Assembly: GCA_039190745.1 (NCBI GenBank)
Contig: JBCCXZ010000044.1
Span: 1-33,089 of the forward strand
DNA length: 33,089 nucleotides
Direction of reading: 5' to 3'
Source: Planctomycetota bacterium
GTDB lineage: Bacteria > Planctomycetota > Planctomycetia > Pirellulales > Lacipirellulaceae
Shown piece by piece: positions 5,758 to 19,880 of the stretch (positions within the stretch are counted from its first letter, which is position 1; each line of letters begins with the position of its first letter). Below the pieces are notes generated by a model, which was given only the letters and a program-made list of their open reading frames with translations, was not told where the DNA came from and ran no database searches. The translations under genes and the position numbers were made by a program.

Positions 5758-6039
5758 CAGAATCCTCCCTCTGGCCCTCGACGGGCAGGACGGCACATGG
5801 CGGGCAAACCCACCGCAAGCACGGGCGTAGCCCGGGGCAGAGCGGTCGGCAGTTCGGCGGGCGACGCGGCGGCGTCAGTCTCGGCGGGCGGAGGCCAATC
5901 CCAGAAGGGCGGCGTCCTGTCCTACGAAGTCGGCCATTCACGGTGCTGACGATGAGCAATAATCTGCCGGCCCTACCGGACGGGTTCTCCCGACGCGTCG
6001 TGCCGGCGGCACGGCCTGGGTGCGGCCCAACCGCGCCGC

Positions 6040-6045
6040 TATAAT
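6040..6045 (+). promoter_or_regulatory. Putative -10 element for the top6 operon
   Basis: Perfect TATAAT in GC-rich DNA, about 47 nt upstream of the likely TTG start. No clear -35. Confidence 0.45.
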
Positions 6046-6091
6046 CCGTAGCTTCTACCCAGATTCACGACCGCGACCGAGGAAGCGAAGC

Positions 6092-8200
6092 TTGGCCACC
6101 GCGAAGAAAAAGAAGGCGCCCCCAAAGAAGAAGGCGAAGCAGCCGGCGAAGAAAGCCCCCAAGAAGGCGCCCGCCAAGCAGAAGCCAACCAAAGCCGCGC
6201 CGGCCGCCCCAGCCAACGGGGCCCCCAAGAAGAAGCGACGCGCCTCGGCCCAGTCGATGGCCGCTTCGCAACGCGACATCTCCGTCAGCGAGTTCTTCTC
6301 CAAAAACCGCCACCTCCTGGGCTTCGACAACCCCCGCAAGGCCCTGCTCACCACCATCAAAGAGGCCGTCGACAACTCGCTCGACGCCTGCGAAGAAGCC
6401 GGCATCCTCCCCGAGATCTGGGTCCACATCGAGCAGACCGGCGGCGACCGCTACAAGATCGGCGTCCAGGACAACGGCCCCGGCATCCTCAAGAAACAGA
6501 TCCCGCTGATCTTCGGCAAGCTGCTCTACGGCTCGAAGTTCCACCGCCTCCGCCAGAGCCGCGGCCAGCAGGGCATCGGCATCTCCGCAGCCGGCATGTA
6601 CGGCGTCCAGACCACCGGCAAGCCGGTGAAGATCCTCTCCAAGGTCTCGGTCCGCAAGCCGATCCACTACTACGAGATCCAGATCGACACGAAGGTCAAC
6701 AAGCCCCGCATCCTCAACGGCAAAGGCGAAGGCGTCGACATCCCCGCCGGCGACAAGGGCGCCGCCTACATCGACAAGCACGGCATCGAGTGGGCCGACG
6801 AGAACCACGGCACCCGCGTAACGATCGAGCTCGAAGCCAAGTACAACCGCGGCCGCGGCAGCGTCGACGAGTACCTCGAGCAGACCGCCATCGCCAACCC
6901 GCACGTCACGCTGCACTACCTGGACCCCGACGGCAACGAACGCAACTACGACCGGGCCGCCGACCAGCTGCCGCCCGAACCGAAAGAAATCCTGCCCCAC
7001 CCCTACGGCGTCGAGCTCGGCCGGCTCGCAGCGATGCTCTCCGACGCCGAGGCCATGACGCTCGGGCAGTTCCTGGTCAGCAACTTCTCAAGGGTCACGC
7101 CCGGTGTGGCCCGTCGGGTGTGCAAGGCGGCGAACGTCTCTCCCCGCGCCGGCACCCGCCGCATGGGCCGCAAAGAGGCCGACGCCCTGTACCACGCGAT
7201 CCAGGGCACCAAGATCCCGCCGCCGTCGATGGACTGCATCTGCCCGATCGGCGAGGAGCTGCTGCTCAAGGGCCTGCATCAGGTGGTGCCGGGCGAGTTC
7301 TACGCTGCCGCCACCCGCCCGCCGGCCGTCTACCGCGGGAACCCGTTCCAGATCGAAGTCGGCCTCGCCTACGGCGGCACGGCTCCCACGCAGAACGTCA
7401 CGAAGGAGCTGCTCGCCGAGCTGCTCGAAGAAACCGACGCCCGCACGGTTCGGCAGTTCCTCATCAACACCTTCAACGGCCTGGGCAGCGAGGGCGCCGA
7501 CCAGATCGTCAAGAACTCCGGCCTCAGCACGCGGCAGTCGCCCTCGAAACTCAAGCCCAAAGAGTCGGCCAAGCTGCTCGAAGCGATGAAGAACGTCAAC
7601 ATCTCCGAGGGCCAGACGATGAACGTCCTGCGGTACGCCAACCGCGTGCCGCTGCAGTTCCAGCACGCCGCGTGCGCCATCACGCAAACTGTGATCGCCA
7701 ACAACTGGCGGAGCTACGGCCTGAGCCAATCCCGCGGCTCGCTCCCCAAGGGCCCGGTGAACGTCATGGTGCACATCGCCAGCGTCTGGGTGCCGTTCAC
7801 GAGTGAGTCGAAGGAAGCGGTCGCCAGCTACCCGGAGATCCAGAAGGAGGTCCGCCTCGGCCTGCAAGCAGTCGGCCGCAAGCTCGGCATGTACCTCCGC
7901 CGGCGGCAGAAGGTGAAGCAGCAGGGCGAGCGGCGGAACGTCTTCCTCCGCTACCTCGGCGAGGTAGCCGGCGCAGTGCACGAGATCAACCAGGCCGACA
8001 AGCAGAAGGTGTACGACGACCTGCTGAAAGTCGCCAAGAAGGTGACTTCAGACGCTGACGTGAAGCTCGACGACCGCGGCCGGCCGATCGAAGACCCCAT
8101 TGCCGACCTCGGCGAGAACGTGCTCATCGTCGATCCGAACGACGTAGAGCACGGCATCAACCGTGCGGCGAAGTCTGCGGATGACTCTGAAGAAGAGTAG
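6092..8200 (+). CDS. top6B: DNA topoisomerase VI subunit B
   Basis: [20 protein letters not shown] motifs [34 protein letters not shown] and GTRV, PHPYG, transducer RYANRVPL and PFTSESKEA. Start set at TTG 6092 after a GAGGAAG RBS (the ORF track starts at 6020). Confidence 0.97.
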
Positions 8201-8201
8201 C

Positions 8202-8258
8202 CACAGATGGACGCAGGTAAACGCTGATAGCCTCACGCAGAGACACCGAGACGAAGAG
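8202..8258. repeat. Left periodic repeat arms flanking the nuclease gene (10-nt triplet, then 8-nt triplet)
   Basis: cacagatgga|cgcaggtaaa|cgctgat (8202-8228), followed by ctca-cgcagaga|caccgaga|cgaagag (8232-8258). Confidence 0.75.
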
Positions 8259-8261
8259 AAG

Positions 8262-8837
8262 ATGGTTCGACGCCAACTACAGAAGCAGTTGGTTCAAGCC
8301 TGGGAACATGCCATTACCCAGGACTACTTGACCCAGAGGATCAACTCTGAACGGAGCCTGCAAGAGTCGTATTGGGCCTGCCTGAATCGGTTGCTTTCAC
8401 CGAAATCGCGCCGGATGTTCATCGAACCGCACCTCACGATTTCTACCTCAGACCATAGCAAGCGGTACTACCCTGACATTGTCATCTGCAACACGAAGCA
8501 AGTGATTGGCGTCGTCGAACTGAAGTACGAACCTCGGAAGCTTCCGAGTCTGAAGAAAGACATGGGTTCGCTAAGGGACATATCTGCTAATCGAGAACAC
8601 CTATCGATTACCAACAAACGCTTCCGAGGTCGTTCGATCGACGAAAGGCGCTATGATCTTCCAAGCAATGTTTTGTTTGTATGGGCAGGAGTTCATCGAA
8701 CGCCGGCCGATAGCTTTAGCAGTCCTAAGACCCCCCTCATGAGTGAAGGAATCGATGAACTCCGAGGCTGTTTCCTCGAACTGCACGCAGAGACATCCTC
8801 CAACGGGAACCCGAACGTGTTCTCCAGAAGCGGCTGA
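8262..8837 (+). CDS. Putative PD-(D/E)XK superfamily nuclease inserted between top6B and top6A
   Basis: Motif series SERSLQ ... FIE ... YPDIVI ... VVELKY ... KKD. Visibly lower GC and different codon usage than the flanking genes. Start set at ATG 8262 because the ORF extension to 8163 runs through top6B and the repeat arms. Confidence 0.7.
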   Translation: MVRRQLQKQLVQAWEHAITQDYLTQRINSERSLQESYWACLNRLLSPKSRRMFIEPHLTISTSDHSKRYYPDIVICNTKQVIGVVELKYEPRKLPSLKKDMGSLRDISANREHLSITNKRFRGRSIDERRYDLPSNVLFVWAGVHRTPADSFSSPKTPLMSEGIDELRGCFLELHAETSSNGNPNVFSRSG

Positions 8838-8868
8838 CGCTGATATCAGGTAGGTGTCTCGCCTGATC

Positions 8869-8895
8869 CTCTGCGCCTTTGCGTCTTTGCGAGAG
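8869..8895. repeat. Right 8-nt periodic repeat arm, inverted partner of 8232-8258
   Basis: Its reverse complement is ctct-cgcaaaga|cgcaaagg|cgcagag, the same 27-nt length and register as the left arm. Confidence 0.75.
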
Positions 8896-8922
8896 ACCGC
8901 TCCCATTAACTCACAAGATCTG

Positions 8923-10089
8923 ATGGCCAAGAAGAAAGCCCCCCGGAAGACCGGGACCGCCAAGAAGCCCGTCAAGAAAGTAAAACTCTCGGCGCGGGAC
9001 AAGAAGACGATGGACAGCCTCCGCGGGCTGGCCGACGGCGTGGTGAGCGCCGCGACCAAGAAGCGCGAGCCGCACGTCGATATCCCGTCACGAACACTGT
9101 CGAACATCAAATACAGCCCCCGCAAGCGGATCCTGGAGATGGGCTCCGGCAAGAACCGCCGGCAGTTGTTCGACCTCTCGCAGGCCAAGGCCTACATGCG
9201 CACCATGCTGGTCGCCAGCGGCTGCAAGCGGCTCATCGACGAGGGCAAGACCACCAGCCTCCGGGGTCTGTTCTACATGCTCAAGCACACGATCGAGGGC
9301 ACCAAAGAAAACACCTTCGACGAACAGAACGAGTGCGACACGATCATCGAAGACAGCGAGGTGCTGCTCGACTCTCTGCGGGAGGAGCTGCACCTCTACG
9401 CCGAGAACCGCGGGGCGATGGTCGGCAACATCACGTTCACCGACAAGGGCGACGAGATCAACTGCGCAAAGATGGGCTCGGGCGGCTACGCGATCCCCTC
9501 GATTTGCGAGCCCGAGATCATCAAACTCGACCGCAAGAAGTGCGACGCCAAGTTCATCCTGCACGTCGAAAAAGGCACGGTCTGGCAGCGGTTCAACGAA
9601 GACCGCTTCTGGGAGAAGCACAACTGCATCCTCACGCACGGCTCGGGTCAGCCGCCTCGCGGCGTGCGGCGGCTGCTCTACCGGATGCACAACGAGTTAA
9701 AGCTGCCGGTGTACTGCGTGCTCGATAACGATCCGTGGGGGTACTACATCTACAGCGTGATCAAGCAGGGCTCGATCAATTTGGCGTTCGAGTCGCAGCG
9801 GATGGCAATCCCCGAAGCGAAGTACCTGGGACTCCGCAGCATCGACTACGACCGCTGCGACCTCTCCGACGGGGTGAAGATCGCCCTGAACGACAACGAC
9901 CGCAAGCGGGCCAAGCAGGTCGCCAAGTACCCCTGGTTCGAGAAGAAGCGCAACTGGCAGCGCGAGATCGACCGGATGCTGAAGAACGACTTCAAGCTAG
10001 AAGTCGAGGCGCTGATCTCCAAAGATATCAGCTACGTCACCGAGACGTACGTCCCGGAGCGGCTCGAGGCTCAGGACTGGTTGGACTAG
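8923..10089 (+). CDS. top6A: DNA topoisomerase VI subunit A (Spo11-like)
   Basis: Catalytic Tyr motif TSLRGLFY, EQNECD, TOPRIM motifs HVEKGTVW, HGSGQP and DNDPWGYYI, and C-terminal KLEVEAL. Start set at ATG 8923 (the ORF track starts at 8854 and reads through the repeat arm). Confidence 0.97.
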   Translation: MAKKKAPRKTGTAKKPVKKVKLSARDKKTMDSLRGLADGVVSAATKKREPHVDIPSRTLSNIKYSPRKRILEMGSGKNRRQLFDLSQAKAYMRTMLVASGCKRLIDEGKTTSLRGLFYMLKHTIEGTKENTFDEQNECDTIIEDSEVLLDSLREELHLYAENRGAMVGNITFTDKGDEINCAKMGSGGYAIPSICEPEIIKLDRKKCDAKFILHVEKGTVWQRFNEDRFWEKHNCILTHGSGQPPRGVRRLLYRMHNELKLPVYCVLDNDPWGYYIYSVIKQGSINLAFESQRMAIPEAKYLGLRSIDYDRCDLSDGVKIALNDNDRKRAKQVAKYPWFEKKRNWQREIDRMLKNDFKLEVEALISKDISYVTETYVPERLEAQDWLD

Positions 10090-19749: not shown

Positions 19750-19880
19750 CACCACGAAGACACAAAGGCACGAAGAAGCAGAAAGGAATACCAATCGGCA
19801 CTAATCAGAATTAGTGAAGATTAGTGCTGATTAGTGTTCCTCGTCTTTTCTCTTCTTTGTGCCTTCGTGTCTTTGTGGTT
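19750..19880. repeat. Nested inverted periodic repeat element (empty) between moxR and DUF58
   Basis: Outer arms caccacgaagacacaaaggcacgaagaag (19750-19778) and cttctttgtgccttcgtgtctttgtggtt (19852-19880), 8-nt period. Inner arms ccaatcggcactaatc (19791-19806) and attagtgaag|attagtgctg|attagtg (19810-19836), 10-nt period. Confidence 0.88.

Follow-up and report, generated by a model that had tools for sequence, protein, structure and literature searches.

In the Lacipirellulaceae genome GCA_039190745.1 (G000 below; 3.9 Mb, 65% GC, 95% complete, 125 contigs), the genes for the two subunits of topoisomerase VI, top6B and top6A, are separated by a 722-nt spacer. Within it, an open reading frame (ORF) of 191 amino acids, a putative nuclease, lies between two inverted arms made of short periodic units. 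The locus was analysed as part of the window, that is, the whole stretch of 33,089 nucleotides taken from contig JBCCXZ010000044.1 (C44). What is new here is the state of this single junction across the family: 25 of 89 genomes carry an arm pair at it, which is empty in 19 and filled with unrelated genes in six. With a probability of about 0.6, we read the arms as a resident hairpin that accepts foreign genes into its loop, the alleles being swapped by recombination and the GxxExxY protein being a candidate cutter in trans.

Alleles of the top6B-top6A junction

The survey covered 105 top6A loci, 92 of which were resolved (the other 13 had no top6B in the fetched stretch). Three junctions with gaps below 10 nt were dropped and 89, that of G000 included, were scored for arms; besides the 25 with both arms, 8 had one and 56 had none. 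The six enclosed ORFs are the nuclease of G000, a glyoxalase-family gene (G018), an ORF with a weak SMI1/KNR4-like match (E 0.05; G041) and three unknowns of 95 (G020), 84 (G120) and 134 (G043) amino acids. A seventh armed cargo is a glyoxalase gene with a decayed right arm in G135. The sense strand carries all seven, and in six the GC content at third codon positions (GC3) is 0.18-0.35 below that of the host. The armed cargos are mostly one-off and begin 3-30 nt after the left arm, and the right arm ends 14-38 nt from the top6A start in 24 measured junctions. The sole congener available (G001; top6A 98% identical to that of G000) has a 39-nt spacer with one arm of 10-nt period and neither the 8-nt arms nor the nuclease. 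A preliminary description, made from the letters of the window alone, had suggested aligning this junction across relatives, and direct, empty-arm and different-cargo alleles were all found.

Of the resolved junctions, 29 of 92 are longer than 400 nt and hold varied genes, which is the turnover seen at hotspots flanked by core genes. The genes that recur more widely at this place lie outside arms: ExoD in 4, DUF6498 in 4 and a pair of unannotated ORFs of 82 and 89 amino acids in up to 19 of the 92. This pair is likewise low in GC3, so that armed cargo is not set apart by a low GC3. One of its members (pair at L195, L256, L270, L272 and others) shows a weak ParE match (E 0.02), and the two look like a toxin-antitoxin pair resident at the hotspot. 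The junction of G021 (L012) holds repeats of 7-nt period with GTTGGAA units and inverted copies downstream, and those of L011, L025 and L026 are occupied by palindromes resembling repetitive extragenic palindromic (REP) sequences. Arm presence is scattered over the top6B tree (85 sequences), a distribution that would be compatible with ancestral presence and many losses and, equally, with repeated insertion at a preferred spot.

The cassette in G000

The preliminary description had placed an ORF of lower GC with the motif YPDIVI..VVELKY between top6B and top6A, and all its coordinates hold (Table 1); GC is 0.52 and GC3 0.61, against a GC3 of 0.90-0.91 in top6B and top6A. The 27-nt arms that it reported around the ORF pair in inverted orientation at 20 of 27 positions, and at least 20 were reached in 0 of 300 shuffles; the pair is absent from the list of a generic repeat finder. 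In the minimum-energy fold of 8198-8925 the arms close as a stem (z -3.0, 20 shuffles). Their identity, 18 of 25 positions, is tied for the lowest among 19 junction pairs. The arm of 10-nt period after the top6B stop is also present as described, and since it is common to G000 and G001 it predates the difference between them. Inside this arm, right after the top6B stop, lies a micro-ORF of 6-7 codons (8207-8227); in G001 it ends 9 nt upstream of the top6A start, where a ribosome relay could be conceived.

Both copies of the 9-mer ACGCTGATA are where they had been reported, and a 9-mer shared by the two stretches arises in 0.8% of shuffles. Its reading as an insertion scar was given up, since as a target-site duplication the second copy is in the wrong position, inward of the right arm, and G001 reads ACGCAGATA and thus has no matching target. 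Nor was a target-site duplication found outside both terminal repeats, where it is placed in MITEs (miniature inverted-repeat transposable elements) and non-autonomous insertion sequences. A small inner hairpin, ATCAGG ... CCTGAT, lies at 8845-8867, after the cargo stop and before the right arm, and overlaps the second 9-mer.

The view of the ORF as a promoterless cassette in a window free of mobilisation genes agrees with the scans: no promoter-like site was found, and there were 0 Pfam matches to transposase or integrase families among the 22 window ORFs scanned (102 listed). The terminator scan gave a single terminator-like site, on the minus strand and at chance level, and the Rfam scan of the window gave 0 matches. 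The cassette sits between two protein genes and not in an rRNA, which sets it apart from rRNA intervening sequences.

Table 1. Features of the top6 locus and of a further arm set in the window
Feature	Position	Strand	Remarks
top6B, topoisomerase VI subunit B	6020..8200	+	PF09239 (E 2e-52) and HATPase_c; GTG start as listed, start codon uncertain
Lone left arm, 10-nt-period family	8201..8229	+	Directly 3' of the top6B stop; no right partner
Left arm, 8-nt-period family, purine-rich, degenerate	8232..8258	+	Ends 3 nt 5' of the cargo ATG
Cargo ORF, 191 aa, solitary putative PD-(D/E)XK-fold nuclease, unnamed family	8262..8837	+	179 homologs, alignment, AlphaFold2 (AF2) model
Second ACGCTGATA copy	8837..8845	+	Inward of the right arm; unexplained
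Right arm, 8-nt-period family, pyrimidine-rich on the + strand	8869..8895	-	Inverted match to the left arm
top6A leader, 27 nt	8896..8922	+	Between the right arm and the top6A ATG
top6A, topoisomerase VI subunit A	8923..10089	+	PF21180, PF04406; present in 118/120 family genomes
Gene-less nested arm set	19753..19877		8-nt-type pair with a 10-nt (CACTAAT) hairpin in the loop

A dispersed family of periodic arms

Loose patterns of three units with a period of 8, 9 or 10 gave 171 raw arm-like matches in G000 (166 merged), against 13 in the reversed-sequence control. Where adjacent arms were at most 700 nt apart, the purine arm came first in 47 cases and second in one, and 16 had both arms in the same direction (nested). 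By gene context, 50 pairs were co-directional in 28 cases (including one false 11.6-kb pair), convergent in 14, divergent in 2 and unresolved in 6. The arm family is therefore genome-wide, and it is mostly empty: most loops are short, or are filled with other arm pairs or REP-like palindromes. As extragenic inverted doublets able to form a hairpin, the arms have the layout of REPINs (REP doublets forming hairpins). Across the family the 8-nt pattern occurs in 109 of 120 genomes with 1 to 239 matches each (controls near 0) and is absent from eleven (G019, G081, G049, G075, G013, G115, G116, G002, G004, G017 and G112). There is no second copy of the loaded cassette in G000, and the arms themselves are multi-copy. 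A literature search found no description of these periodic arms in the texts that it covered, which did not include supplements, a possible place for repeat catalogues.

The nested set at 19753-19877 lies just before a DUF58 gene, and the same design recurs on at least 7 other contigs. Small unannotated ORFs stand inside 10-nt arm pairs of G000 at C2:126756-127098 (~95 codons) and C20:48762-49024 (55-70 codons).

Twenty G001 arm loci of the 8-nt type and 30 of the 10-nt type were compared with G000; many have no collinear counterpart, and the patterns are examples rather than rates. Some arm sites are conserved between the two congeners. At others the contents of the loop vary and the arms stay: the ~95-codon ORF on C2 and a REP-like insert on C29 of G000 each correspond to a short loop in G001. 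The whole spacer is changed at C36:13216-13686, where perfect 8-nt arms enclose a GxxExxY gene in G000 and the counterpart in G001 (L274) is a nested pair, empty and of other arm types; the flanking genes are presumably those of the glutamate synthase subunits.

Sequencing run X1, which may be the source sample, holds the full top6 allele, and no joint skipping the block was found in its contigs, which drop rare variants. Run X2 joins across the block like G001 and was not counted as independent; run X6, from a more distant relative, is also joined across it (one contig, depth 3). No RNA run was listed as holding the locus. The low GC3 of the ORF and the X6 joint favour a gain of the block by G000, and the decay of the arms, together with the presence of arms at the corresponding place in a neighbouring genus, favours the arms being older.

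The nuclease family

By alignment and structural model, the 191-aa ORF encodes a protein with the PD-(D/E)XK fold. Its family is unnamed and separate from that of GxxExxY, and the protein is presumably active as a nuclease. The database gene call (P0002, 218 aa) begins upstream, and homologs align from the ATG at 8262. Among 227 candidates of similar length 179 were homologs, and E30, P71, D72, E86 and K88 are invariant in all 113 aligned sequences, which yields the E ... PD ... ExK signature of the fold. The fold itself, proposed in the preliminary description as a point to be checked, is backed by a confident AF2 model (predicted local distance difference test score 94) and by structural matches to such nucleases. 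The best VIA-align matches were SduA (Z 9.0, root-mean-square deviation 4.2, 153 aligned residues), NucC (8.2) and BglII and BstEII (8.0); the top scores were tied at 6-12% identity, and the top 40 rows were mostly PD-(D/E)XK nucleases. Foldseek gave no match at E 0.001, with SfsA and NucC ranked first. A fold shared with SduA, NucC or type II enzymes does not show function. Hjc was matched by 21 of the 113 family members (E up to 0.1). The query protein had no match in Pfam, PADLOC or PHROGs, and at most 2 of the 113 members had a PADLOC match, a weak one. In the ESM Atlas the close clusters were all unnamed, the nearest named ones being MunI and PDDEXK_18 at 0.78. Concerning GxxExxY (PF13366), no Pfam match was obtained, and profile comparison gave a probability of 0.7% with the catalytic strand alone aligned.

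The nuclease family was found in 8 of 120 family genomes, at one locus each. In four genomes of g9 nested arms, full or partial, enclose it beside what we take to be a cold-shock gene, and one of these copies is frameshifted; G129 carries a homolog without arms. Equivalent triple-nested arms by that gene hold the homolog in one orientation at L080, L082 and L147 and in the opposite one at L077 and L081, and the gene on the far side is not the same, a pattern that suggests inversion or rearrangement through the arms.

At the top6 junction itself, armless homologs of 42-45% identity, coupled to the top6B stop, occur in G019, G081 and the metagenome locus L114; the 8-nt arm was found nowhere in G019 and G081 (genus g19). 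The preliminary description had allowed that a gene conserved vertically at this position without arms would speak against a cassette. Armless relatives at the junction do exist, but simple vertical conservation does not describe them, as g19 lacks the 8-nt arms and is not near the genus of G000 on the top6B tree. Vertical inheritance of the nuclease at the junction is indeed unlikely, with g1 and g19 distant on that tree and 89 of 92 junctions without the gene. The protein trees (quick trees and an approximately unbiased, AU, test) are compatible with one origin of the g1 and g19 copies. AU tests were run on 47 sequences with 5000 replicates, below the number advised by the program; one origin with four other arm-flanked homologs was rejected (p-AU 0.0007), and a single origin with the g9 copies was not (p-AU 0.21).

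Elsewhere the family travels armless, and some of its loci lie between attC-like sites. The survey of homolog loci comprised 131 rows, 114 with usable flanks and the G000 locus included; arms stood on both sides in 5 of the 113 other rows (4 distinct loci). Motifs resembling attC were present on both sides in 14 of 120 homolog rows, duplicates and the G000 locus being among the rows tested, and in 0 of the swapped control, by a crude motif test and not a covariance model. The G000 locus is not among the 14, so that it does not qualify as an integron cassette. The nearest fetched homologs (51-56% identity) are not located at top6. An armless homolog parts soxX from soxY (L112:2112-3506), and the family thus also enters tight operons without arms. 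Of 137 neighbouring ORFs picked, 120 were scanned: the named ones were largely unrelated housekeeping genes, with single occurrences of McrC, a type I restriction subunit and YoeB, and no methyltransferase was found. With such unrelated neighbours, and with 3 of 92 top6 junctions occupied, the family does not have the one insertion site of a homing endonuclease.

GxxExxY and the movement of the arms

The gene for GxxExxY is present in 112 of 120 family genomes. The preliminary description mentioned similar arms around GxxExxY genes in other bacteria, and in G000 the same arms do flank them: of six such genes, three stand between clear arms, a fourth, at a contig end, has a left arm, and the remaining two have short repeats of another kind. 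Its suggestion that the nuclease might be the mobiliser, in contrast, found no support. With the nuclease in 8 genomes and arms in 109 of the 120, the nuclease cannot maintain the arms, and it seems to be a passenger and not their general mobiliser. GxxExxY is a candidate mobiliser or cutter in trans, because it is the one gene family found repeatedly inside arms in G000. For arms and GxxExxY a Fisher test gave p 1e-4, a value that was not used since kin are not independent. The transposase family Y1_Tnp (PF01797) was not found in G000, at its 95% completeness and 125 contigs, and two matches above the cut-off were found in G001.

Explanations for the filled junctions

In the explanation that we prefer, the arms at top6 would be one copy of dispersed periodic inverted repeats that form hairpins just downstream of stop codons, and the loop of the hairpin would be a slot for incoming DNA, with the nuclease gene as one of many passengers. 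A foreign ORF would be installed in the loop when a break at the hairpin, for which GxxExxY acting in trans is the most plausible cutter, is repaired; filled and empty alleles would then spread between lineages via homologous recombination in the top6B and top6A flanks or between arms. The passenger would be read from the operon transcript by read-through, the purine tail of the left arm may serve as its ribosome-binding region, and the stem, which is predicted to close beside the start codon of the cargo, may damp its translation. The protein could be a stand-alone DNase, most likely of a defence or abortive type, at about even odds. A stronger version, in which the hairpins are a dedicated integrase-free capture system, GxxExxY opens loops in operons, ORFs of the integron pool are installed and immediately expressed from the host transcript, and the insert is tuned or concealed by the stem, is offered tentatively and with more doubt than conviction.

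Several observations weigh against the resident-hairpin explanation. Armless inserted genes are common at the junction, where insertion thus needs no arms, and a single origin of the nuclease with the armless g19 copies from that junction was not rejected (p-AU 0.37). Of the 6 family carriers with armed genomes, 5 have the nuclease within arms, full or partial, a link tighter than a random passenger needs. GxxExxY is found without the 8-nt arm in 6 genomes, the reverse holds in 3, and 5 have neither (only 3 lineages). The wobble pairs of the stems show no G-U bias on the transcribed strand (47 vs 48; 22 vs 28), and thus an RNA-level role of the stem is unsupported by this test. No cut, intermediate or recombination tract was observed, the nuclease had no defence-system match in PADLOC and its homologs have few defence neighbours. 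Lastly, G001 lacks the 8-nt arms and the nuclease together.

This last point also fits a unit that moves whole. Arms and gene could form a non-autonomous mobile unit, REPIN-like or MITE-like, mobilised in trans at gene junctions, probably by GxxExxY, an explanation that we consider unlikely. The X6 joint across the block is a weak hint of gain in the G000 lineage, whole spacers are replaced between congeners, arm counts run from 0 to above 200 per genome, and the two arms of one pair are more alike than arms of different pairs (22.3 vs 20.4 of 25), all as such a unit would have it. However, the loaded cassette is single in G000 and has no target-site duplication, the X1 contigs hold no block-skipping joint, and the same position before top6A is used family-wide with different cargo. 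Moreover, the arms are among the most decayed, yet the nuclease gene is not adapted to host codon use.

A more modest explanation takes the arms for ordinary intergenic hairpins at a tolerant hotspot, where insertions in the loop do little harm and no dedicated capture takes place. The 29 junctions above 400 nt speak for it, as does the position of most inserted genes at the junction outside arms (ExoD, DUF6498, the 82- and 89-aa pair) and as do the homologs that split other operons without arms, soxX-soxY among them. We think it quite improbable nonetheless, for the enclosed genes are mostly one-off, with starts 3-30 nt past the left arm, the nuclease family is in arms at independent sites and the nested architecture is frequent. 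Least probable of all, and by our estimate very much so, is a selfish nuclease, in which a free-standing enzyme of the homing type would cleave the empty top6 junction or the arms and insert a copy of itself. PD-(D/E)XK homing endonucleases do exist, according to the portion of PMC3424549 consulted. The gene is solitary, with no methyltransferase among the scanned neighbours, and its family is at the top6 junction in two distant genera, for which one origin was not rejected. Against this, the nuclease is in only 3 of the 92 resolved junctions and single-copy in each genome, its closest fetched homologs are away from top6, and the family occupies many unrelated sites and attC-like contexts.

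Relation to known systems

The cassette is REPIN-like in layout and hotspot-like in turnover, and it fails the tests for a REPIN unit, a MITE and an integron cassette. In the parts of PMC3116915 and PMC3733652 available to us, REPINs, which go with REP-associated tyrosine transposases (RAYTs), are described as extragenic inverted doublets, capable of forming hairpins, mostly gene-less, near gene 3' ends and with singlets as remnants. The arms studied here share this layout and a candidate mobiliser in trans. They differ in that they consist of three periodic units of 8-10 nt, are non-palindromic and by inspection have no GTAG or CGTC tag, whereas REPIN units are tagged palindromes. Their spacers, moreover, range from 3 to more than 600 nt and hold whole ORFs, and the gene inside them is of the PD-(D/E)XK type and not an HUH transposase; Y1_Tnp was not found in G000.

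Core-gene-flanked hotspots without mobile elements turn over by recombination at the core genes that flank them, as stated in the part of PMC5635113 consulted. The top6 junction shares with them the rapid turnover between two conserved genes, the lack of an integrase and cargo families that recur in distant genera; unlike them, it has a defined hairpin that marks the slot for part of the cargo.

Integron cassettes are promoterless single ORFs read from a host transcript. The G000 cassette is likewise a promoterless single ORF, and the cargo pools overlap, as the 14 of 120 attC-like homolog loci indicate. Here, however, the gene is inside the loop of one hairpin and not between successive hairpins, and there is no attC pair and there are no arrays.

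Like the nuclease, GxxExxY is a small solitary PD-(D/E)XK gene in the same periodic arms at operon junctions, but it is multi-copy and nearly ubiquitous in the family, whereas the nuclease is rare, single-copy and mostly armless. With Shedu SduA, NucC and type II restriction enzymes the nuclease shares the nuclease core (Z 8-9), and it departs from them in its 6-12% identity, the tied scores and the lack of a partner gene or sensor domain. The function of GxxExxY (PF13366, PDDEXK_3) is given as 'Unknown' in the part of PMC3424549 that deals with it.

Implications

Transfer hotspots often lack any recognisable mobile element, and the entry of the first gene copy at such places is an open question. 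Here a single core-operon junction in one family presents an allelic series: it can be armless, carry empty or nested arms, or have one of at least six different genes in arms. This series supplies concrete substrates, together with a candidate enzyme of unknown function, GxxExxY. For this repeat family the candidate engine is separated from the passenger, and genomes with 0 and with more than 200 8-nt arms make a natural contrast for finding the protein that maintains the arms. An unnamed PD-(D/E)XK family, shared with integron-like cassettes, is added as a candidate defence gene.
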